36,303 bases of DNA from a virus, in the UHGV virus genome UHGV-1321070. One strand, given 5' to 3'. Under the pieces are notes generated by a model, which did not search any database, had not been told where the DNA came from, and was given only the letters and a program-made list of their open reading frames with translations. Both the position numbers and the translations under genes were made by a program. Shown piece after piece: positions 4,060 through 36,135 of this stretch. Numbering within the stretch: the first letter of the stretch is position 1; each line of letters begins with the position of its first letter.

Positions 4060-5226
4060 TTAAACCCCTTTGACAACGTCAGCGTTGACCTGTGGAACCC
4101 CGATTTCAGCGGCCAGATTCATGGCGGCTATTACCAGGTTACTGACGGCCAGCGGATACAGCAGGCTGACCATATTTTTACGGTGACTTCCCGGATTGCT
4201 CAGGCGGGCACGTATGGCATCCACTGCACCGGCGTCCATAATGTCCGTCAGCTGTTTACCGGCCCGTTGCAGTTTGAACGTCAGAAATTCTTCAAGGTTA
4301 TTGTCCAGAGGCAGAAGTTCGACCACCTCACAGCGCTGAACGACTTCACGGACTTCCATATTGCGTTCAGACAGTTTTGTCGCCAGTTCCGGCTGGCCAA
4401 TCAGCACGATGGACAGCAGTTTTTTGAAACCGGACTCCAGCTCAAAAAAGCGTTTGAGGTGTTTCAGTGTCGGAATGGGCAGACTGTGGGCCTCCTCAAT
4501 CACCAGAACGTGGCTGAACCCCGCCTGGCTGCTGTCTTTCAGGACGCGATGCAACTGGCGAAAACGGGCGTCCTGACTGCGTCTGATGCTTTCCAGTGGT
4601 GCGATGGTACTGATAATGGCTTCGGCAATAGCTGCTGCCTTCAGGGTTTTCCCTTTCACATCGTTGTCTTCCATAGCGATGATGTATGGCTCGATAACAA
4701 TTACCGGCGCATTCTCGCGGTTGATACGTTCAGTCAGGTCGCGGCGCAGCGTGGATTTACCCGCACCGGACTCACCGATGACGGCCATAAACCCACCATG
4801 ACGGGCTGTCTGGTACAGCGCCTCACGCACGTAGCGAATGTCCGGGGTGGTGAACACATCATCAGAACCCTGCATGGCTTCGTCGGCGAACGGGTCACGG
4901 AAAAGACCAAACGCTTTTTTGGTTGCTGGAAATAACACCTGTTTTTTGAGTAACATATTCTCTTCCTCACTGAGGCTCGTTTTATCTGTGGTACCCGCTG
5001 TACGGGGCGTGGCCGCGCCCTGTACAGCATCAAAACTCTTCGTTGTATCAATCCCCTGACTTTCCAGCCAGGACGCAAGACGCCGGCGCACTTCTCCGGG
5101 GCTGGTGCGGGGCCACGCGTTATGATTCACAATCTGGGCCAGCGTGGCCTCAGAAACATCGACAGCTCTCGCCACCACCGCCTGTGGAATACGGGCCTCT
5201 TTCAGTTGCTGCTTCAGTACCAGCAT
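4060..5226 (-). CDS. MuB-like AAA+ ATPase (transposition target-DNA activator) with N-terminal HTH
   Basis: Walker A GESGAGKST, Walker B-like HVLVIEEAH; start set at the Met preceded by GAGGAGGG (track ORF starts 39 nt upstream); immediately downstream of the transposase as in Mu A-B. Confidence 0.7.
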   Translation of the reverse strand: MLVLKQQLKEARIPQAVVARAVDVSEATLAQIVNHNAWPRTSPGEVRRRLASWLESQGIDTTKSFDAVQGAATPRTAGTTDKTSLSEEENMLLKKQVLFPATKKAFGLFRDPFADEAMQGSDDVFTTPDIRYVREALYQTARHGGFMAVIGESGAGKSTLRRDLTERINRENAPVIVIEPYIIAMEDNDVKGKTLKAAAIAEAIISTIAPLESIRRSQDARFRQLHRVLKDSSQAGFSHVLVIEEAHSLPIPTLKHLKRFFELESGFKKLLSIVLIGQPELATKLSERNMEVREVVQRCEVVELLPLDNNLEEFLTFKLQRAGKQLTDIMDAGAVDAIRARLSNPGSHRKNMVSLLYPLAVSNLVIAAMNLAAEIGVPQVNADVVKGV

Positions 5227-5236
5227 GTTTCCCTCC

Positions 5237-7006
5237 TCAGTTGCCGTTAACAATGCTGATAACACTGCTGCGGGCCGGTGTGGTCAGCGTGGCCATGACT
5301 TCATCCAGTGCGGCTTCCGGTACGCCGTCCGGGTACTGTGCCGTTAACTGGCGGTAATGTTCCGGCGTCCAGGTAAGGCCGTCGGCGCTGAACTTATCGC
5401 GCAGGGCTTTCGCGGCCTCCACATGAGTCATGGGACGTTGTTCAGTGCGCGGCCCGCGTACGTCAGAGGCCTGACCACGCTTCGGCATATAGGCCGGAAG
5501 TGTGGTGTCGTCGATATGTTTATACGGGTCAAGCCGCCCGCCGAACGGCAGCGCCTTCGCCTTGCGTGCGGCGGCTGCATCTGCGGCGTTGTCTGTACCG
5601 GTAACCAGCGCTTCGGTTTCTTTTGCCGCCATCTGTGCCGGGGTTTCCGGCAGGGCTTTGTAACTTTCGCCAAATACCGCCGCGCCTTCAGCAAAGCCAA
5701 ACTCGTTCTTTCTGACCTCTTCGACCAGGAAGAACGTCTCGTGGCCGTCCTCACCGGTCAGAACCACCTGTGCCACATCGCTGCGCCATGGGTTACGGGT
5801 AATCATCAGTTTTTCACCAACCAGTACGCCCGGTACCGTTGATACGTCAAATTCAGTGCCCCGGAACGAGACACGAAGTTTTGGCGTGACTTTGCGGAGT
5901 TCTGGTGCCGCCACAGCCAGTTCACGACATACCTCAACGGAAGGCGCTTTTTTCAGCTGCTCAGCAGTAATCTTCAGCCAGATATCCGTGCGGGTTTTAC
6001 CGTGGCGGCTGTGAACAGCCGTGGCGTTAAAGTGGCTGCGCCATTTCGCGGCCAGCGCGTTGAGTTCTTCCAGACTGTGAACCGGCCGGAACTTCAGACC
6101 CGGCTCCAGCTTGCGTTCGATAATGTCACGCGCCTTTTCCACCTGTCCGGTGGCGCGGGCGTTATGCGGCTTGTGCGCTATCAGGTCGATGCCCAGTGAG
6201 CGGCACATGTTTTTCGTCATACCCGCGGTGTTTGCCGAGCCGGGGTCGAGATAGAGTATTTTCGGCACGCCGTGCAGCACGTCTGCGCCGCCACGCTCCT
6301 GCATGGCGTTGATAAGCACAGAACACAGGTTCTCACCTGATTCCGCGCCCGTCACATACTCAACGTAAATCCAGCCGCTGGCATGGTCGGTAATCTCGTA
6401 ACTCCACACGCGGTCACTGGCGATACGGGCAAGGTTAGCGGGCTTGTTCTTGTAGAACTTCGCGCTGTCCATCACCTGCAGCCCTTTATGTCCATTGCTC
6501 AGGTAGTAAAGCGTGCAGAGTGAGGCGTCAATCTGCCAGACATGATTGGGATGCAGACTGGCCACTTCGGTATGTGGTGCAGGGGCATCCAGTTGTTCCG
6601 GGTGCAGGCCATAGTTACGCAGAGCACGGCTGATGGCATCTTCAGACAACGGGAAAAACTCACTGGTGGTTTCATCTGTTCTGCCTGCGGTGATAAAGCC
6701 GTTAGCCCGCAGGGTTTCCACTGCATCTGCGATGGAATAGAGACGCTTACCGTTCTTGCGGGTGGCCTCACGCAGTGTGGCAGATATCAGCGCGGCTTCG
6801 TCGCGGGTCAGGGCGCTGCGCCCGGCATCGGCGCGTTTTTTGCGTTTATCAGTCACAGAGACCTCCTTCAGCCTGCGCAGCAGAGTGGCGCGGGACATGC
6901 CAAGTTCAGCACAGGCAGCGTCGTATATTGCACCGCGTTTACCATGCCCCGCGTCACGTGCCGCGCGGGCGACATAAACCAGTCGTTCAGTCAGGGCAGC
7001 ATTCAT
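5237..7006 (-). CDS. MuA-like DDE transposase
   Basis: 589 aa; N-terminal HTH (GMSRATLLRRLKE), central integrase-core-like region (HVWQID ... D/E-rich), Mu-transposase-like C-terminal region; GGAGG RBS 7 nt upstream of the ATG. Confidence 0.8.
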   Translation of the reverse strand: MNAALTERLVYVARAARDAGHGKRGAIYDAACAELGMSRATLLRRLKEVSVTDKRKKRADAGRSALTRDEAALISATLREATRKNGKRLYSIADAVETLRANGFITAGRTDETTSEFFPLSEDAISRALRNYGLHPEQLDAPAPHTEVASLHPNHVWQIDASLCTLYYLSNGHKGLQVMDSAKFYKNKPANLARIASDRVWSYEITDHASGWIYVEYVTGAESGENLCSVLINAMQERGGADVLHGVPKILYLDPGSANTAGMTKNMCRSLGIDLIAHKPHNARATGQVEKARDIIERKLEPGLKFRPVHSLEELNALAAKWRSHFNATAVHSRHGKTRTDIWLKITAEQLKKAPSVEVCRELAVAAPELRKVTPKLRVSFRGTEFDVSTVPGVLVGEKLMITRNPWRSDVAQVVLTGEDGHETFFLVEEVRKNEFGFAEGAAVFGESYKALPETPAQMAAKETEALVTGTDNAADAAAARKAKALPFGGRLDPYKHIDDTTLPAYMPKRGQASDVRGPRTEQRPMTHVEAAKALRDKFSADGLTWTPEHYRQLTAQYPDGVPEAALDEVMATLTTPARSSVISIVNGN

Positions 7007-7934: not shown

Positions 7935-8306
7935 TTACAAACGACTACCTGAAATAACTCGTTGGTTGATTTCGTTAATACGATCCTGTGCACGCGCCAT
8001 CTCGTGACTGTGAGCCATGGCGATCTGTAGTAACTGGATTCCCGGTGCGAAACGTCCGTTCTCTAATTTCATGGCCAGTCCCTCTTCAATAAGGGTATTA
8101 AGTGCTCGATTGATATTCGCCGGGGACTCCCCCAGGGCTGATGCCAGTTCACCGTTAGAAACACCGTTCAGAGCATGACCGCGTAGAGCTTTGAGTACAC
8201 GTAGGATGCGGGTCCCAGAACTGGAAATATTTACTTTACTCATGTCACATTTCCATTTTTGCAATATGTGATAACCTGTTGCATATGTGGAAAATTTATG
8301 CCGCAT
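7935..8306 (-). CDS. Winged-helix DNA-binding protein (MarR/IclR-like HTH)
   Basis: 123 aa; segment GTRILRVLKALRGHALNGVSNGELASALGESPANINRALNTLIEEGL is a typical wHTH. Overlaps the ner-like gene by 11 bp; an internal start (MSKVNISS) is possible. Confidence 0.45.
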   Translation of the reverse strand: MRHKFSTYATGYHILQKWKCDMSKVNISSSGTRILRVLKALRGHALNGVSNGELASALGESPANINRALNTLIEEGLAMKLENGRFAPGIQLLQIAMAHSHEMARAQDRINEINQRVISGSRL

Positions 8307-14202: not shown

Positions 14203-15794
14203 CAAAATCATCCGGAGTGATTTTAAACGCCGCTGGCGGTGGCCCCGAAGGGATGAGTCCCATGGACGGGAGGAATAACCTTGCTCCCGTTTTGCCTGAT
14301 ACCTCGGCGCTGGATGCTCCTCCCGTTCTGTTGCCTTACCAGCAGCGCTGGGTGGCAGACACCTCTCCGCTTAAGGTGATAGAAAAGAGCCGTCGTACCG
14401 GTATTACATGGGCTGAGGCATCCGATAACGTACTGACCGCCGCCTCTTCTGCGCCAGCAGGCGGGATGAATGTGTATTACATCGCTTATAACCAGGACAT
14501 GACCGTCGAATACATTCAGGCGTGTGCGATGTGGGCACGGGCATTCAACTATGCGGCCAGTGAAATTGAAGAAGGATTCTGGGAAGAGGACGACGACGAC
14601 AAACACATCAGGACTTACACCATCAAATTTCCTGACTCCGGCTTTCGTATTGTTGCGCTCTCCAGCCGCCCGTCTAACCTGCGTGGCCGTCAGGGTATTA
14701 TTGTTATCGACGAAGCGGCGTTCCATGAGCAACTGGACGAACTGCTGAAAGCGGCGCTGGCGATGCTTATCTGGGGGGGAAAGGTACGCGTTATCTCCAC
14801 CCATAACGGTGACGACAATCCGTTCAATACGCTTATCGGGGATATCCGTGCCGGACGTCAGGGAGGCAGCATACATCGCATCACTTTCCGGGAAGCCGTA
14901 TCTGAGGGGCTGTTCCGGCGCGTCTGTCTGCGCACCGGGAAGGAATGGTCGGAGGCATCCGAGCAGGCCTGGATGGCATCGGTGTACAAATTCTACGGTG
15001 CCGGCGCATCCGAAGAGCTTGACTGTATTCCGGCCAACGGTGGCGGTGCCTGGCTGTCCCGTGCCCTGATAGAGTCCCGCATGTCCGCTGATACGCCGGT
15101 ATTGCGTCTGACCTGCAAGGAAGGTTATGAACTGCTGTCTGATGAGGTTCGCTTCCGCGAGACGCAGGACTGGCTTGATGAGTATCTGAAACCCTTGCTG
15201 GAGGCACTCCCCACTGATGCCCGCTCTTTCCTGGGGCGCGACTTTGGCCGTAGCGGTGATTTGTCGGTGGACTATCCCCTGCTGCAGGAGAAGAACCTGG
15301 TACGACGCGTGCCATTCGTACTGGAGCTGCGTAACGTGCCGTTCAGACAGCAGGAGCAAATCACCTGGTATCTGATGGATGGCCTGCCCGGTCTGCTGGG
15401 TGCAGCGTTTGATGCCCGTGGTAATGGTGCCTATCTGGCTGAATACGCCATGCAGCGCTACGGCTCCAGCCGGGTTCAGCAGGTGATGCCAACCGAAGGC
15501 TGGTACCGGGAGCATATGCCTCCGGTCAAAGCTGCACTGGAAGACGGTAACCTGGTGGACTTACCAAAGGATGAAGACACACTGGATGACCTGCGGGCCG
15601 TTCAGGTGGTGAACGGTGTCCCCCGCGTACCGGAGCAACGCTCAAAAGCAAAGGCTGACGGTGGTAAACGCCACGGGGATTCAGCCATCGCACTGGCGCT
15701 GGCGTATTTCGCCAGCCGTGAAATTAACAAAGGGCCGGTGAAGGCAAGCTCACGCCGTCGTCGTCAGGCGGCCCGTATGCTGGAGGGATTCTGA
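14199..15794 (+). CDS. Terminase large subunit (Mu gp28-like)
   Basis: 531 aa; ATPase-like motifs (IIVIDEAAF), position before portal; start overlaps the previous stop. Confidence 0.75.
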   Translation: MTKSSGVILNAAGGGPEGMSPMDGRNNLAPVLPDTSALDAPPVLLPYQQRWVADTSPLKVIEKSRRTGITWAEASDNVLTAASSAPAGGMNVYYIAYNQDMTVEYIQACAMWARAFNYAASEIEEGFWEEDDDDKHIRTYTIKFPDSGFRIVALSSRPSNLRGRQGIIVIDEAAFHEQLDELLKAALAMLIWGGKVRVISTHNGDDNPFNTLIGDIRAGRQGGSIHRITFREAVSEGLFRRVCLRTGKEWSEASEQAWMASVYKFYGAGASEELDCIPANGGGAWLSRALIESRMSADTPVLRLTCKEGYELLSDEVRFRETQDWLDEYLKPLLEALPTDARSFLGRDFGRSGDLSVDYPLLQEKNLVRRVPFVLELRNVPFRQQEQITWYLMDGLPGLLGAAFDARGNGAYLAEYAMQRYGSSRVQQVMPTEGWYREHMPPVKAALEDGNLVDLPKDEDTLDDLRAVQVVNGVPRVPEQRSKAKADGGKRHGDSAIALALAYFASREINKGPVKASSRRRRQAARMLEGF

Positions 15795-17290
15795 TGGCGA
15801 GGGGTATCTGGGTTTCACCCGATGAATTTGTTGCTTTTTCTGAGCCTCAGAAATCACTGACCGCGCAGATTGCCTCCCGCAGCCGCGCGATCGACTTTTA
15901 CGGACTGGGCATGTATCTGCCCAATCCTGATCCCATTCTCAAGGCTCAGGGACGGGATATCCGTATCTACCGCGAACTGCGCACCGACCCGCTGGTCGGG
16001 GGCTGTATCCGCAGACGTAAAGCAGCGCTTAAATCGCTGGAGCGTGGACTGGAGCGTGGTCACGCCTCTGCCCGGGTCTTCCGTTTCATCCGCGACATGC
16101 TCGACGATCTGGATCTGTCCCGCATCATCGGTGAAATGAGCGATGCCGTGCTCTACGGGTATCAGCCCTGTGAAATCATGTGGGGCCGTTCGGTCAGGTC
16201 GTGGGCGGTGACGGATATTGTCGGCAAACCGCCTGAGTGGTTTCAGTTTGATACGGACAACTGCCTGCGCTTCCGGGCGCGTGATGCGGGTGTGGAGGGT
16301 GAGCTGCTGTCACCGTCAAAATTCGTGGTGCCGGCACAGGATGCCTCGTATGACAATCCTTACGGTTTCCCGGACCTGTCCATGTGCTTCTGGCCGGTCG
16401 CCTTCAAGAAAGGCGGGATGAAATTCTGGCTCCGCTTTGCCGAAAAGTTTGGCTCCCCGTGGGTGATCGGTAAGCACCCGAGGGGCGCAAATGATGCAGA
16501 GATTGAAAAACTGCTGGACTCCATGGAGCAGATGGTGGAGGACGCGGTGGCCGCCATCCCCGATGACAGCAGTATTGAGCTCAGGGCAGCGGATGGCAAG
16601 GCAGACAGCAGCGAGGTATTTCGCGAGCTGATCACACTGTCACGCAGTGAGATCTCCATTGCATTACTTGGTCAGAATCAGACCACGGAAGCGAACAGTA
16701 ACAAGGCCTCTGCACAGGCCGGGCTGGAGGTAACGGCTGATATCCGCGATGCGGATGCGGACATCATTCAGGCAGCAGTGAATCAGGTTATCAGAACGGT
16801 GGTCACCCTGAACTTCGGCGATGTGCCGTGTCCGGTCTGGGCCATGTGGGAACAGGAGACCATTGATGACACCCGCGCCACCCGCGACGAAAAACTCACC
16901 CGGGCGGGTCTGCGTCTGACCCCGCAATACTTTAAGCGTGAGTACCAACTGCAGGACGGCGATATTGACGAGACATCACCGTCGGAACGCCAGAATAACA
17001 TGCTGCCGCTGTCATTTGCCGAGGCGATTGATGCCGATATTCAGGCTCAGCAGCAGCTTGACGACGCGCTGGACATTCTGATGAACGGAGGTGTGTTAAA
17101 TGGCACGCTGGAACCCGTCCTGGCACCTCTGTTTAAGCGGGTCGAAAACGGGGTTAACCCGACTGAGCTGCTGGGCGAACTGGCGGAGCTCTACCCTCAG
17201 ATGAACACGGACGATCTGCAGGAACGGCTGGCCCGTATTCTCTTTGTGGCAAATATCCGGGGACGTCTGCATGAGCGTGACAACGGCTGA
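15794..17290 (+). CDS. Portal protein (Mu gp29-like, DUF935)
   Basis: 498 aa, follows the terminase with overlapping TGATGG junction; size and position typical of Mu-type portal. Confidence 0.75.
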   Translation: MARGIWVSPDEFVAFSEPQKSLTAQIASRSRAIDFYGLGMYLPNPDPILKAQGRDIRIYRELRTDPLVGGCIRRRKAALKSLERGLERGHASARVFRFIRDMLDDLDLSRIIGEMSDAVLYGYQPCEIMWGRSVRSWAVTDIVGKPPEWFQFDTDNCLRFRARDAGVEGELLSPSKFVVPAQDASYDNPYGFPDLSMCFWPVAFKKGGMKFWLRFAEKFGSPWVIGKHPRGANDAEIEKLLDSMEQMVEDAVAAIPDDSSIELRAADGKADSSEVFRELITLSRSEISIALLGQNQTTEANSNKASAQAGLEVTADIRDADADIIQAAVNQVIRTVVTLNFGDVPCPVWAMWEQETIDDTRATRDEKLTRAGLRLTPQYFKREYQLQDGDIDETSPSERQNNMLPLSFAEAIDADIQAQQQLDDALDILMNGGVLNGTLEPVLAPLFKRVENGVNPTELLGELAELYPQMNTDDLQERLARILFVANIRGRLHERDNG

Positions 17291-30750: not shown

Positions 30751-31098
30751 ATGAAAACGACCTCAGTATTCTGGCAACCAGCCCTGCAGGCTCCCGGCGA
30801 AATTGTCCGGGGGCTGGATGATATCCGGCAGGCGATTCAAATTATCCTGCGGACTCCCCGCGGCAGCGACCCGCATCGCCCGGAGTTCGGCAGCAATCTG
30901 CATCTTTATATCGACTGGCCTGTAGACCGGGCCATTCCGCATGTGGTGCGCGAATCCGTCGATGCCATCCGGCGCTGGGAGCCCCGCTGCCAGCTTATGT
31001 CAGTTAAACCCGCCGTCGACGGCGAACATCTTACGCTCCGGGTGAGCTGGAAAGGCTCAGACGGACAGACCCGGACTCAGGAACTGCTATGGCGCTGA
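30751..31098 (+). CDS. Baseplate wedge protein (P2 gpW / T4 gp25-like)
   Basis: 115 aa with the GPW/gp25 signature region (IRQAIQIILRTPRGSDPHRPEFGSNLHLYIDWPVD). Confidence 0.7.
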   Translation: MKTTSVFWQPALQAPGEIVRGLDDIRQAIQIILRTPRGSDPHRPEFGSNLHLYIDWPVDRAIPHVVRESVDAIRRWEPRCQLMSVKPAVDGEHLTLRVSWKGSDGQTRTQELLWR

Positions 31099-32192
31099 CA
31101 GAACCCGATTTTATTGAACGCGATGCCGACAAAATCACGGCAGAAATGATTGCGAAGTATGAAGCGGATACCGGCAAAACGCTGTACCCGGCACAGGCAG
31201 AACGTCTGCTGATTGATCTGTGGGCCTATCGCGAAATGCTGGTCAGGGTTGCGGTACAGGAGGCAGCAAAGCAGAATCTGGTCGCCTTTGCCCGTGAGCC
31301 GATGATTGATTACCTCGGTGAACTGGTCGGTGTATACCGTCTTGCCGCGCAGCCTGCCACCACCACGCTCCAGTTCTCCGTAGATGAGGCACTGGCCATT
31401 GATGTGCTGATCCCGGCAGGCACCCGCGTCAGCGCTTCCGACAGCGTTATTTTCGCCACCGATACAGATGTGGTACTGAAGGCCGGATTGCTGCTGGTCA
31501 ATGTCACGTCCACCTGTACCGAACCCGGTACCGCTGGTAACGGCTGGCAACCTGCGCAGGTCAGTCAGTTACTCGATGAGATTGATAACGTCGACCTGCT
31601 GGTGAGCAATCTGACGGCTAGTTCCGGCGGTTCAGAACAGGAAGACGATGACAGGCTCCGGGAGCGTATCAGGCTGGCCCCGGAGTCATTCACCAATGCC
31701 GGAAGCCGTGGCGCATACCGCTTTCATGCCATGCAGGCCCATCCCAACATTGTCGATGTTGCTGTGCTTTCCCCGGTTCCCGGGACCGTAGATCTGTATC
31801 CGCTGCTCAGTACCGGTCTGCCGGACGGCGGTGTTCTCACGCTGGTAGAGAGTTTCTGCTCTGATGAGAAAGTCAGGCCACTCACTGATACAGTGCGGGC
31901 TAAAACACCAGTGAAGGTGGATTACACCATTGAAGCCAGGATTACGATCTATCGTGATCAGGATGCCAGGTCTGTAAAAGATGCCGCTAACAGCGCCATA
32001 CAGAACTGGGTGGCATCACATGCCGCCACGCTGGGGCGTGATATTGTCCCCAGCCAGATTATCAGTGCATTGTCCGTTTCCGGGGTGTACCAGGTTGAAC
32101 TGGTGACACCGGCACTGAGGGTGGTGGCAGAAAACGAATGGGCAAACTGTACGGCGATCACACTTAACATGAGTGGAGTGTCTGATGACTGA
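31089..32192 (+). CDS. Baseplate protein J-like
   Basis: 367 aa following the gp25-like gene; order W-J-I is conserved in P2/Mu-type baseplates. Confidence 0.65.
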   Translation: MALTEPDFIERDADKITAEMIAKYEADTGKTLYPAQAERLLIDLWAYREMLVRVAVQEAAKQNLVAFAREPMIDYLGELVGVYRLAAQPATTTLQFSVDEALAIDVLIPAGTRVSASDSVIFATDTDVVLKAGLLLVNVTSTCTEPGTAGNGWQPAQVSQLLDEIDNVDLLVSNLTASSGGSEQEDDDRLRERIRLAPESFTNAGSRGAYRFHAMQAHPNIVDVAVLSPVPGTVDLYPLLSTGLPDGGVLTLVESFCSDEKVRPLTDTVRAKTPVKVDYTIEARITIYRDQDARSVKDAANSAIQNWVASHAATLGRDIVPSQIISALSVSGVYQVELVTPALRVVAENEWANCTAITLNMSGVSDD

Positions 32193-32763
32193 GCCATTAC
32201 AACTCCCGCCACCGCTTGAGGGTGATATCAGTCTCAGGACGCTGGGAAGACTGGCAGGGCGGCTGGATAACATCGACCTGAGCGTACTGATGGTCTTTCT
32301 CGTCGATATCGTCGACAGTTCTGCGCTGCCATGGCTGGGCGAGCAGTTCTCACTGTCTGGCGATGGCTGGGAGCTGGCGGAATCGGACGATGTTCGCCGC
32401 ATGCTTATAAAAGCAGCCATCGAACTACACCGGTATAAAGGGACGCCGTGGTCAATCCGGGAAGTTATCCGCCGTTTTGGCTTTGGTGAAGTGGATCTGA
32501 TTGAAGGCACAGGTCGTCTCAGTTACGACGGCAATCGCAGCTATAACGGACTGTTTGTTCATGGAGATGCAGCCGCCTGGGCGGTTTATCGCGTTATTCT
32601 GAAACAGCCCATTACTAACGATCAGGCCGCGATGCTGCGTCAGACGCTCGCTGCATTTGCACCGGCCCGCTGCCATCTGGCCAGCCTGGAGTATCAGTCT
32701 GTGGCCATTCGCTATAACAATACCGCCATCCATGATGGCAGTTATAACCACGGGAGCAGTTGA
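32173..32763 (+). CDS. Tail protein I-like (baseplate component)
   Basis: 196 aa, between J-like and tail fibre genes. Confidence 0.55.
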   Translation: MECLMTEPLQLPPPLEGDISLRTLGRLAGRLDNIDLSVLMVFLVDIVDSSALPWLGEQFSLSGDGWELAESDDVRRMLIKAAIELHRYKGTPWSIREVIRRFGFGEVDLIEGTGRLSYDGNRSYNGLFVHGDAAAWAVYRVILKQPITNDQAAMLRQTLAAFAPARCHLASLEYQSVAIRYNNTAIHDGSYNHGSS

Positions 32764-34397
32764 TTATGGGAAACCTGAATGAAACAGAAAAGTGGGAAGA
32801 AAATATCTATCAACTGGAGACATCAGATCCGGTTCTGGGTGGTGCTGACGGGATATCAAATCGAGCCCCCCGGCAACTGGCAAACAGGACGAAATGGCTG
32901 AAGAAAAAAACGGAGGAAGCCGCACAGTCACTGGCTGAACACGTACGTTCCCGTAACCACCCGGACGCGACACTGACAGCTAAGGGGTTCACCCAACTGA
33001 GCAGTGCCACCAACAGCACCTCTGAAACGCTGGCCGCCACACCAAAAGCCGTCAAGGCTGCATACGACCTTGCAGCCGGCAAGGCACCCGTCAGTCACAC
33101 TCACCCGTGGAGTCAGATAACGGGAGTGCCTGCTGCCTCGCTGACGGCAAAAGGCACCGTACAACTGAGCAGTGCCACGGACAGTCAATCAGAAACTGAG
33201 GCTGCCACGCCGAAGGCTGTGAAAATCGCGTATGATCTGGCCCGGGGAAAATACACAGCCCAGGATGCAACAACGACCCGTAAAGGGATCGTACAACTGA
33301 GCAGTGCCACCAACAGCACCTCTGAAACGCTGGCCGCCACACCAAAGGCCGTCAAGGCTGCATATGACCTGGCTGCCGGCAAGGCCCCCGTCAGCCACAC
33401 TCACCCGTGGAGTCAGATAACGGGAGTGCCTGCTGCCTCGCTGACGGCAAAAGGCACCGTACAACTGAGCAGCGCCACGGACAGTCAATCAGAAACTGAG
33501 GCTGCCACGCCGAAGGCGGTCAAGGCTGCATACGACCTTGCAGCCGGCAAGGCGCCCGTCAGCCACACTCACCCGTGGAGTCAGATAACGGGAGTGCCTG
33601 CTGCCTCGCTGACGGCAAAAGGCACCGTACAATTGAGCAGTGCCATCAACAGCACGTCTGAAATACTGGCCGCCACACCGAAAGCGGTCAAGGCTGCATA
33701 CGATCTGGCAAACGGAAAACAACCGGCAGATGCCACGCTCACTGCTCTGGCAGGACTTGCCACTGCAGCAGATCGGTTGCCTTATTTTACCGGAGCAGAC
33801 CGCGCAGCGCTGGCAACCCTTACAGCTATTGGTCGCGCGATTATCGCTAAGGGCAGTATAAAAGATGTCCTCAATTACCTTGGTTTGGGGGAAGGCTCTG
33901 CATTGCCTGTTGGTGTACCGGTTCCATGGCCCACCGCCACACCGCCAGCAGGCTGGTTACAGTGCAACGGAGCTACGTTCACCAAAGAACAATATCCTGT
34001 TCTGGCCAGAGTCTACCCGACCCTCCGTCTTCCCGATTTACGCGGTGAGTTTATCCGTGGATGGGACGACGGGCGCAAAGTTGATACAGGACGTAAGTTG
34101 CTGTCCGCACAAGGGGCAACGCTGTTAAGAACAGCAATGCTGGATTATTATAACCAGGACACTACGGGAACCTCGGGGATAGTCGGCATGGGATTCAACA
34201 ATGAAGATTCCATTACAGACCTTCGTGAGGGCAGCTTTAAAATGCCGGACGGGACAACATTCAGCGATCCTGTCATGGCAATGTCAGACAATGGTATGCA
34301 GGCTACTATTCTGACCTCTATCAGAAGCGGGTATGCGAAGGGTATCACTGTCAGACCCCGTAGCATTGCACTTAATTACATTGTGAGGGCAGTTTAA
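32760..34397 (+). CDS. Tail fibre protein (constant N-terminus, repeat region, invertible C-terminus; current orientation)
   Basis: 545 aa; five copies of the phage-fibre repeat (QLSSATNSTSETLAATPKAVKAAYDLA); the 3' third lies inside the invertible segment, whose left recombination site is at 33868..33893. Confidence 0.8.
   Translation: MIMGNLNETEKWEENIYQLETSDPVLGGADGISNRAPRQLANRTKWLKKKTEEAAQSLAEHVRSRNHPDATLTAKGFTQLSSATNSTSETLAATPKAVKAAYDLAAGKAPVSHTHPWSQITGVPAASLTAKGTVQLSSATDSQSETEAATPKAVKIAYDLARGKYTAQDATTTRKGIVQLSSATNSTSETLAATPKAVKAAYDLAAGKAPVSHTHPWSQITGVPAASLTAKGTVQLSSATDSQSETEAATPKAVKAAYDLAAGKAPVSHTHPWSQITGVPAASLTAKGTVQLSSAINSTSEILAATPKAVKAAYDLANGKQPADATLTALAGLATAADRLPYFTGADRAALATLTAIGRAIIAKGSIKDVLNYLGLGEGSALPVGVPVPWPTATPPAGWLQCNGATFTKEQYPVLARVYPTLRLPDLRGEFIRGWDDGRKVDTGRKLLSAQGATLLRTAMLDYYNQDTTGTSGIVGMGFNNEDSITDLREGSFKMPDGTTFSDPVMAMSDNGMQATILTSIRSGYAKGITVRPRSIALNYIVRAV
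32981..33700 (+). repeat. Tandem direct repeats inside the tail-fibre gene (300-bp unit, about 2.4 copies)
   Basis: Sequence at 33001..33230 recurs nearly base-for-base at 33301..33530 (exact 300-bp offset), with a third partial copy to about 33700. Confidence 0.8.
33868..33893. other. Gin/Hin-type recombination site, left (within fibre gene)
   Basis: On the bottom strand reads TTCCCCCAAACC-AA-GGTAATTGAGGA, comparable to hix/gix sites (for example TTCTTGAAAACC-AA-GGTTTTTGATAA); sits at the outer edge of the 199-bp inverted repeat. Confidence 0.7.
33880..34078. repeat. Inverted repeat, left arm (199 bp, perfect)
   Basis: Reverse complement of 35298..35496 is identical over 199 bp by manual comparison; encodes GEGSALPVGVPVPWPTATPPAGWLQCNGATFTKEQYPVLARVYPTLRLPDLRGEFIRGWDDGRK in both fibre variants. 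Confidence 0.85.
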
Positions 34398-35011
34398 TGA
34401 GTAACACTGCAGTTCTGGATGAAAACGGTATCGCCACTGTAGCGGGCGATATCACTGTATATCACTATGACGAGGAAACCCGGGAATACACCTCATCCTC
34501 TGTGGAGTATCTCGCCCTTGGGGTGGGTACTCCGGCACATTCGTGCGCCGATGCACCGCCGGAGGCAATTTCGGGTTACGTGGTTTGTCGGACTGCCACG
34601 CTGAACGGGTGGGAGCATGTGCCTGATCACCGCGGCGAGACGGTATACAGCACGGAGAACGGTAACCCCGTTCTGATTACCCAACCGGGTGATTACCCGG
34701 CGGACACCACCACAAAACAGCCAGCCACGCCATGGGATACCTGGAACGGTGAGGCGTGGGTAACCGATACTGAACGGCAGCGAGCCGCAGAACTGGAGGT
34801 TGCCAGACAGCAACGCCAGCAACGAGTGAAACAGGCGATGGCGTCCGTCGATCTTATCAACCTCAAACTGCGTGCTGGTCGCAGTCTGACACCAGAAGAA
34901 ACGGCAAAACTGAACGCCGTGCTGGATTATATCGACGAGCTGAACGCACTGGATATCAGCACGGCACCTGAAATCAGCTGGCCGGAAGCGCCACTGGCAC
35001 TTGCCAGTTGA
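34397..35011 (+). CDS. Tail fibre assembly chaperone (Tfa / Mu U-like)
   Basis: 204 aa; start overlaps the fibre stop (TAATG); typical Tfa-like N-terminus (LDENGIATVAGDITVYHYDEETREY); lies inside the invertible segment. Confidence 0.7.
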   Translation: MSNTAVLDENGIATVAGDITVYHYDEETREYTSSSVEYLALGVGTPAHSCADAPPEAISGYVVCRTATLNGWEHVPDHRGETVYSTENGNPVLITQPGDYPADTTTKQPATPWDTWNGEAWVTDTERQRAAELEVARQQRQQRVKQAMASVDLINLKLRAGRSLTPEETAKLNAVLDYIDELNALDISTAPEISWPEAPLALAS

Positions 35012-35017
35012 ACGGTA

Positions 35018-35491
35018 TCACGCCGCCCTCACGATATAGTTAAACGCGATATTGCGGGGGCGGGTTATGTTAAAGAATGCTCCGTTTAATTCGGCTTTTG
35101 CGCGACTGTTTGTTCCACCCAGCATTGCGTACCACAAATAATCGCTACGGTAATTCCCCGCAAACACCTTATCGCCGCCATAGTCAATATTATTTCCGTT
35201 ACTCATGTACGAGATATCAAGCGAAGAATCGTTATCGTCATGACCGCCGACCAGTGTACCTTTCTGCCATGAAAGCAACTTACGCCCCTCGTCAATCTTG
35301 CGCCCGTCGTCCCATCCACGGATAAACTCACCGCGTAAATCGGGAAGACGGAGGGTCGGGTAGACTCTGGCCAGAACAGGATATTGTTCTTTGGTGAACG
35401 TAGCTCCGTTGCACTGTAACCAGCCTGCTGGCGGTGTGGCGGTGGGCCATGGAACCGGTACACCAACAGGCAATGCAGAGCCTTCCCCCAA
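35018..35491 (-). CDS. Alternative tail-fibre C-terminal cassette (promoterless; fused to the fibre gene after inversion)
   Basis: Minus-strand ORF whose first ~65 aa are encoded by the right inverted repeat and are identical to the fibre segment; it then diverges to a different tip ending RPRNIAFNYIVRAA (current tip ends RPRSIALNYIVRAV). Confidence 0.7.
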   Translation of the reverse strand: MGEGSALPVGVPVPWPTATPPAGWLQCNGATFTKEQYPVLARVYPTLRLPDLRGEFIRGWDDGRKIDEGRKLLSWQKGTLVGGHDDNDSSLDISYMSNGNNIDYGGDKVFAGNYRSDYLWYAMLGGTNSRAKAELNGAFFNITRPRNIAFNYIVRAA

Positions 35492-35496
35492 ACCAA
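35298..35496. repeat. Inverted repeat, right arm (199 bp, perfect)
   Basis: Exact reverse complement of 33880..34078. Confidence 0.85.
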
Positions 35497-35508
35497 CGTT
35501 TATCTCTC
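35483..35508. other. Gin/Hin-type recombination site, right
   Basis: TTCCCCCAAACC-AA-CGTTTATCTCTC; the inner half-site and core are shared with the left site, the outer half-site is unique; lies 55 bp upstream of the invertase start. Confidence 0.7.
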
Positions 35509-35562: not shown

Positions 35563-36135
35563 ATGCTGATTGGCTACATACGTGTGTCAACAAATGACCA
35601 AAACACAGATTTGCAACGCAATGCATTAATGTGCGCAGGATGTGAACAGATTTTTGAGGACAAAATGAGCGGAACCAAGTCGGAACGACCAGGCCTGAAA
35701 CGCGCTTTAAAGTGCCTTAAAAGAGGGGATACATTGGTGGTCTGGAAGCTGGATCGGTTGGGTAGAAGAATGAAACACCTCATTGCTCTCACAGAAGAGC
35801 TACGCGCAAAAGGTGTCAATTTTCGCAGTCTGACGGATTCAATCGATACCAGCACTCCGATGGGAAGGTTCTTTTTTCATATGATGGGTGCACTGGCAGA
35901 AATGGAGCGTGAACTGATAGTTGAGCGCACGCTGGCAGGACTGGCTGCTGCGCGAGCACAAGGGAGAGTTGGAGGACGTCGCCCGAAACTGACGAAGGAG
36001 CAGCATGAGCAGATCGCAAGATTGCTCCAGAAAGGGTATGACAGAAAGCGGCTGGCAATTATCTATGATATTGGACTGTCAACGATCTACCGCTATCACC
36101 CTGTTGGGACTGTCATAACGCAACCTGAAATGTAA
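35563..36135 (+). CDS. Serine DNA invertase of the Gin/Cin/Pin/Hin family
   Basis: Start at the ATG after AAAAGGGAG (track ORF begins 129 nt upstream); MLIGYIRVSTNDQNTDLQRNAL ... VVWKLDRLGR ... SLTDSIDTSTPMGRFFFHMMGALAEMERELIVERT is near-identical to the invertase family, with a C-terminal HTH. Confidence 0.9.
   Translation: MLIGYIRVSTNDQNTDLQRNALMCAGCEQIFEDKMSGTKSERPGLKRALKCLKRGDTLVVWKLDRLGRRMKHLIALTEELRAKGVNFRSLTDSIDTSTPMGRFFFHMMGALAEMERELIVERTLAGLAAARAQGRVGGRRPKLTKEQHEQIARLLQKGYDRKRLAIIYDIGLSTIYRYHPVGTVITQPEM

Follow-up and report, generated by a model that had tools for sequence, protein, structure and literature searches.

Tandem Phage_fiber_2 units of variable number in the tail-fibre gene of a BcepMu-like transposable prophage of Escherichia coli

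The prophage and its tail-fibre gene

The stretch of DNA analysed here (the "window," UHGV virus genome UHGV-1321070, 36,303 nucleotides) is a transposable prophage. It carries genes for an rve-family transposase (positions 5237-7006), an AAA+ ATPase (4060-5265) and an HTH regulator (7935-8306) on the minus strand, and for a Mu-type portal protein (15794-17290) on the plus strand. The record of a close phage, PhiKM, is assigned to Bcepmuvirus. The late region was present to at least 80% in 436 of the 5,426 complete E. coli genomes (about 8%), many of which are labelled ST131. The chromosomal neighbours of the prophage varied among E. coli genomes, being aroA, yfaL or rstA, as expected for a transposing phage.

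The tail-fibre gene is located at 32766-34397 on the plus strand, begins with an ATG that is shared as the start by its RefSeq relatives, and encodes a protein of 543 aa. Upstream of it are a Pfam Baseplate_J homologue (31089-32192) and, immediately adjacent, a Tail_P2_I gene (32173-32763) for a homologue of P2 gpI. It is followed on the same strand by the gene for a tail-fibre assembly protein (34397-35011; Caudo_TAP, 3.5e-28). The fibre protein is composed of an N-terminal region, a shaft of five repeat units, a short constant connector, and a Collar domain with the tip. Five separate stretches of the shaft matched Pfam Phage_fiber_2 (PF03406) with an E value of 4e-94 and 308.4 bits at a cut-off of 22, and the C-terminal part matched Collar (3e-15). 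The gene order and the C-terminal Collar part are those of a baseplate-attached myovirus fibre of the P2 H or Mu S type, in agreement with the original prediction that this gene encodes a tail fibre.

A sequence search of the PDB aligned residues 377-489 with a short tail fibre (9cuy) and with T4 gp37 (2xgf), and a single repeat unit with residues 103-148 of the Mu tail-fibre protein S (5yvq, 8ju3, 9ki1), which contains the same Phage_fiber_2 motif. No solved structure covering a multi-unit array was found in this search, in which the Mu S matches span one unit. A single-sequence monomer model of the fibre from AlphaFold2 reached a mean pLDDT of only 34.6, which is too low for use, and hinted, with low confidence, that the SET.AATPKAVKAAYDLA portion of every unit is helical. 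No homologue retrieved by protein search had less than about 70% identity to the fibre. The database names of several homologues, "short-chain fatty acid transporter" and in one case "endo-N-neuraminidase" (P0015, P0021, P0024, P0028, P0058, P0088 and others), are evidently propagated misannotations. A contig scan with one genome per species revealed no close full-length relative, and found distant ones, such as those in Eikenella and Necropsobacter (44-48% identity), and two tiny draft contigs.

Anatomy of the repeat array

The array spans positions 32976-33743 and consists of five tandem Phage_fiber_2 units in the order L-S-L-L-S, with three long units ("L," 168 nt, 56 aa) and two short ones ("S," 132 nt, 44 aa). 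Each unit comprises a core of about 37 aa and, behind it, a linker, which is either a long one of 20 aa containing SHTHPW or a short one of about 7 aa. A motif scan of the fibre protein placed the unit starts at residues 71, 127, 171, 227 and 283, corresponding to nucleotides 32976, 33144, 33276, 33444 and 33612. All units are read from the plus strand. Unit U1 (32976-33143, long, 56 aa) has an NSTSETL-type core and the linker APVSHTHPWSQITGVPAASL, and U2 (33144-33275, short, 44 aa) has a DSQSETE-type core and the short linker YTAQDATT. U3 (33276-33443) is long again, with 56 aa and a nucleotide identity to U1 of 92%. The next long unit, U4 (33444-33611, 56 aa), is chimeric: about 74 nt at its 5' end are U2-type, and the remainder including the long linker is U1/U3-type; a nucleotide-identical unit was present in five other genomes. 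The short terminal unit U5 (33612-33743, 44 aa) runs into the constant connector. ORFs on the minus strand that overlap the array are mechanical listings without supporting evidence and were dismissed.

The original prediction had seen at 32981-33700 a 100-aa unit, repeated with near identity at a 300-bp period and followed by a partial third copy. Long, in-frame tandem repeats are indeed located at nearly that place, albeit with wider bounds, and the period of 300 nt corresponds to one L+S pair (U1-U2 versus U3-U4). The two pairs, however, are only 86% identical over the full 300 nt, and near-identity is found in a core of 224 nt on the plus strand, in which 32994-33217 and 33294-33517 agree at 217 of 224 positions (97%). 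All 7 differences in this core are synonymous third-position changes, which marks the copies as distinct and as subject to purifying selection. Rather than a 100-aa module, the basic unit is the Phage_fiber_2 motif of about 40 aa, present five times in units of 168 or 132 nt. Tandem Repeats Finder, correspondingly, reported a single array at 33282-33710 with a period of 168, 2.6 copies and 85% matches. A third copy in the 300-nt register does not exist, and the array continues at a 168-nt period instead, with U5 starting 168 nt after U4 and 336 nt after U3. A repeat finder identified a 282-nt segment with three copies starting at 32960, 33260 and 33428, spaced 300 nt and 168 nt apart, with identities of 89% and 79%.

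In the array, exact direct repeats measure 78 nt at an offset of 168, 77 nt at an offset of 300 and 69 nt at an offset of 468, and the maximum in 20 shuffles of the whole window was 16 nt. The array repeats are real and far beyond chance. The longest exact repeat, at 33387-33464 on the plus strand with its partner at 33555-33632, contains the long linker and the start of the next unit.

Array length among related prophages

A megablast of the fibre gene against complete E. coli genomes yielded gene spans of 1632, 1332 (minus 300) or 1464 nt (minus 168). Array lengths were then measured with a query composed of the flanks only (31089-32975 joined to 33744-34105), which avoided a bias by the repeats. 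The sample was an even spread over the ranking and comprised 42 complete-genome records of E. coli in which the flanks were covered at an identity of at least 96.8%. The most frequent array had 468 nt (25 of the 42 records, by strain name mostly ST131), followed by arrays of 1140 nt (5 records) and 1068 nt (3 records). The window's type of 768 nt was found in two records, as was an array of 804 nt, and 132, 600 and 972 nt occurred once each. These eight in-frame lengths are all equal to 168a+132b. The remaining two records carried off-frame arrays of 467 nt (H106, NZ_CM192150) and 1066 nt (H85, NZ_CP014488), for which a frameshift in the fibre gene, a sequencing error or an effect at the edge of the alignment may be responsible.

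For ten arrays, the succession of units was determined. The arrangement U1-U2-U3-U4-U5 of the window was also that of M9682-C1 (L009) and M-17 (L003). An ST131-type allele (L001, NZ_CP102947) contained U1-U4-U5, B36 (L002) contained U1-U2-U3-U5, and FDAARGOS_1299 (L007) reached 7 units as U1-(U2-U3)x2-U4-U5. Long units followed by a terminal U5 were found in R4 (L005; four long units, three of them nucleotide-identical and in tandem), in 2014EL-1343-2 (L008; five long units) and in Z0117EC0055 (L006; six long units). FAM21845 (L004) was left with a single unit, a chimera of the 5' part of U1 and the 3' part of U5. The protein database added 8- and 9-unit arrays behind the same N terminus and many further orders of L and S units. 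Proteins with both the N and the C terminus of the window's fibre had 443, 487, 543, 587, 643 or 655 aa and 2 to 12 other differences. The comparison of repeat number among related prophages, which had been suggested at the outset, uncovered eight in-frame array lengths and, together with the protein records, a range of 1 to 9 units. The expected length steps of 100 aa do occur (443, 543 and 643 aa), but side by side with steps of 44, 56 and 112 aa.

Since 25 of the 42 records share the 468-nt allele and are mostly ST131 by name, the consensus copy number is stable over the lifetime of the clone. Such a stable consensus in ST131 does not exclude minority variants.

With units of 132 and 168 nt and eight clean lengths in frame, the array does not have the properties of a simple-sequence contingency locus, which acts by frameshift phase variation.

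Copy number and assembly

Evaluation of these numbers needs to consider the behaviour of repeats during assembly, and the original prediction had named the array as a likely source of assembly collapse. Short-read assemblies do break here, at the array and at the invertible segment located downstream of it. Among the draft contigs, one of 237 nt and one of 231 nt started in a repeat unit, the former ending at the inversion site, and many "partial" proteins in the database end just past the array, at that same site. These breaks would be compatible with a copy number in the window that had been produced by collapse or expansion of the repeat. The 768-nt array of the window plus its flanks is, nevertheless, nucleotide-identical in the independent complete genome of M9682-C1, and because of this identity the copy number is not attributed to an assembly error. 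Moreover, 26 of 60 complete-genome records among the matches listed matched the 1632-nt gene over its full length as one aligned piece, the 300-nt copies can be told apart by their 7 synonymous sites, and the ORF is intact. An artefactual copy number is, therefore, very improbable, and the part of the prediction concerning collapse applies to short-read drafts and not to the window.

The 237-nt draft contig (L013, 1-237) begins inside the last unit of the array and ends at the inversion core ccttggttt, and the 231-nt contig (L011, 1-231) starts within a long linker. In RefSeq, the PGAP annotation splits the 3-unit allele (L001 3001-4332, NZ_CP102947) and the 4-unit allele (L002 3001-4464, NZ_LR130545) into pseudogene fragments marked "incomplete; partial." Both alleles translate into intact proteins of 443 and 487 aa with the same ATG and the same stop, and the pseudogene fragments look like an annotation artefact caused by the differing repeat number. 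In the record of phage PhiKM (L010 3001-4258, PQ738613, "partial genome"), the fibre gene breaks off approximately at the inversion site, with early genes on the opposite strand directly behind it. At the invertible segment, this record looks permuted or wrongly joined. A minus-strand ORF named "Fe2+ ABC transporter permease" overlaps the fibre gene in PhiKM. Calls of prophage "intactness" can be wrong at this locus, due to the short-read breaks and to pseudogene labels assigned by PGAP to intact short alleles.

Single-step differences and the gain and loss of units

Some relatives differ by one step only. M-17 with 5 units and FDAARGOS_1299 with 7 units are identical over 2080 nt before the array and 130 nt behind it, and a single clean 300-nt indel is the sole difference between their arrays. 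An identical tract of 197 nt contains the breakpoint of this indel, which may lie at any position within it. Between the window and FDAARGOS_1299, this 300-nt indel is found again, together with 2 mismatches. Two further pairs show the same kind of difference: a 336-nt indel with 0 mismatches separates FAM21845 from the ST131-type allele, and a 672-nt indel with 1 mismatch separates the latter from Z0117EC0055. A clean indel of one 300-nt period between relatives with identical flanks bears out the original prediction that unequal recombination varies the length of the fibre. Judged from the sequences, the indels and the protein lengths agree with what homologous exchange in register between the units, or slippage, should produce.

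Mosaicism of tail-fibre genes is well known. The repeats might, alternatively, be old structural elements in which recombination has ceased, with the differences between strains resulting from horizontal exchange of whole fibre genes. The divergence of the copies at synonymous sites and the uniformity of the 468-nt allele across many records, mostly ST131 by name, would fit this explanation. An exchange of whole genes, however, should not leave two relatives exactly one repeat period apart that otherwise agree at every position, both in the remainder of the array and over 2210 nt of flanks. It also leaves unexplained the chimeric units, U4 and the single unit of FAM21845, and the nucleotide-identical units in tandem in R4. 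Horizontal exchange of whole genes as the source of the length differences is accordingly judged to be improbable.

For tandem repeats of this size in E. coli, RecA-dependent unequal exchange and RecA-independent slippage are both plausible. The array is very probably the fibre shaft of a BcepMu-like transposable myovirus prophage that gains and loses units by in-register recombination, which changes the length of the shaft. The exact tracts of 69 to 78 nt and the 224-nt tract with 97% identity would allow the units to misalign in register during replication or recombination, and the misaligned copies would be resolved by RecA-dependent unequal exchange or by replication slippage. The tract at 32994-33217 and 33294-33517 would be the likely substrate of events of plus or minus 300 nt, and the 78-nt repeat at 33387-33464 and 33555-33632 that of events of plus or minus 168 nt. 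As an outcome, whole units would be gained or lost, and chimeric units would arise at the junctions. Every product should remain in frame because each unit has a length divisible by 3 and pairing takes place between homologous sequences, and the fibre would be altered in the length of its shaft only. Additional units would be expected to lengthen the presumably trimeric shaft, and the length of the shaft may affect adsorption or host range.

An invertible segment downstream of the array

An invertible segment (33871-35505) begins about 130 nt beyond the end of the array, so that the array belongs to the constant part of the shaft. The left arm of an inverted repeat (33877-34105, 229 nt) matches the right arm at 35271-35499 to 96%, and a crossover core, TTGGTTTGGGGGAAGG, was read from the ends of the inverted repeat at approximately 33871-33886. 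The segment contains the current C terminus of the fibre, the assembly gene, and, on the minus strand at 35018-35491, an alternative C-terminal cassette of the fibre (Collar, 1.4e-15) that overlaps the right arm of the inverted repeat. It is followed on the plus strand by a gene for a serine invertase of the Gin/Cin/Hin/Pin type (35563-36135; Resolvase, 1e-50; HTH_7, 2e-12). The mechanical ORF of the invertase starts at 35434, and the 573-nt "recombinase family protein" of RefSeq relatives implies a start at 35563. The segment is in the opposite orientation in FAM21845, where the fibre gene and the assembly gene point in opposite directions. A search with a strict gix/hix-like pattern yielded 2 matches compared to 0.84 expected.

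An adjacent serine recombinase with a C-terminal HTH, inverted repeats and the occurrence of both orientations are the characteristics of an invertible segment of the Gin/Cin/Hin/Pin type. A separate assembly gene for each fibre end, as in the S-U and S'-U' pairs of Mu, is absent, and only one Caudo_TAP gene is located between the arms. With one such gene for two C termini, the flipped fibre would be without a co-oriented chaperone gene. A third, partial cassette is present in relatives such as M-17 and FAM21845 and hints at a system of several cassettes, as in p15B Min. The variation of receptor specificity is separate from that of the array and is brought about by this invertible C-terminal segment.

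The invertase gene 1.8 kb downstream raises the question of whether a dedicated diversification system, a site-specific recombinase or a diversity-generating retroelement, may act on the repeats themselves. The crossover sites of the invertase and the 229-nt inverted repeats at 33877 and 35499 are, however, outside the array, and every junction in the array falls in register inside a long tract of identity, as expected for homologous exchange. Concerning a retroelement, the differences between the copies span all four bases and are not adenine-specific, as they should be in the target of such an element, and no reverse transcriptase was present among the 16 ORFs scanned in the window. A dedicated diversification system is, therefore, very unlikely.

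Comparison with known systems

The gene for the fibre occupies the position of S in Mu, between the genes for the baseplate wedge and the gene for the assembly chaperone. The alignment with Mu S in the PDB search spans one unit, whereas the fibre of the window has five units with two linker lengths, and its relatives 1 to 9.

Invertible tail-fibre segments are known from Mu (G/Gin), P1 (C/Cin), e14 (P/Pin) and p15B (Min). The window shares with these systems a constant N-terminal part of the fibre, invertible alternative C termini, an adjacent serine invertase and the existence of both orientations in nature. It differs by having one assembly-protein gene for two cassettes and an array that is positioned outside of the invertible segment.

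In the distal fibre genes of the T-even phages (His-box/GxHxH, gp37/gp38), recombination is mediated by motifs, and gain or loss of repeats occurs in other receptor-binding proteins of phages. Conserved motifs within fibre genes serve, as in the window, as homologous crossover points that lead to in-frame chimeras. In contrast to the T-even phages, the exchanges in the window alter the number of nearly identical tandem units, which is the length, and do not swap adhesin domains. HxH motifs are iron sites on the threefold axis in T4 gp37, in R-pyocin fibres and in spike proteins (PMC6116203). The HxH of the long linker resembles the sites of T4 gp37 and of the R-pyocin fibre (PMC6116203), and by this analogy it may be a putative metal-ion site on the threefold axis.

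The array is also similar to the VNTR-type genes for bacterial surface proteins, with units that are multiples of 3 nt, an in-frame polymorphism between strains, and slippage or unequal exchange. In contrast to these genes, the gene of the window is a virion structural gene. Such a gene is not expressed in the lysogen, and selection is therefore limited to the production of phage particles.

Biological meaning

Tandem Phage_fiber_2 units represent a long-established Pfam family, and motif-mediated recombination in fibre genes is textbook knowledge. Recombination between the copies is an ordinary and well-understood route to a change in fibre length. A limited search of the literature on PF03406 and on variation of the repeat number in tail fibres found nothing on this array, and papers on the Mu fibre and on HxH motifs contributed structural context only; on the basis of this search, the allelic series of 1 to 9 units in this prophage may be undescribed so far.

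A more far-reaching possibility is that the array is a length-tuning module beside an invertible tip. Fibres of 1 to 9 units and thus of different reach would continually arise by in-register recombination, a prophage lineage could match their length to the thickness of the O-antigen or capsule layer of the host, and the putative HxH metal sites of the long units would stiffen the shaft. This is speculative and rather unlikely as it stands. If it were true, host range would vary on two independent axes, the length of the fibre and the receptor specificity switched by the invertase.

The series of 1 to 9 units in nearly identical fibres offers a natural means to ask for the effect of shaft length on adsorption, and it is a practical template for the engineering of fibre length.
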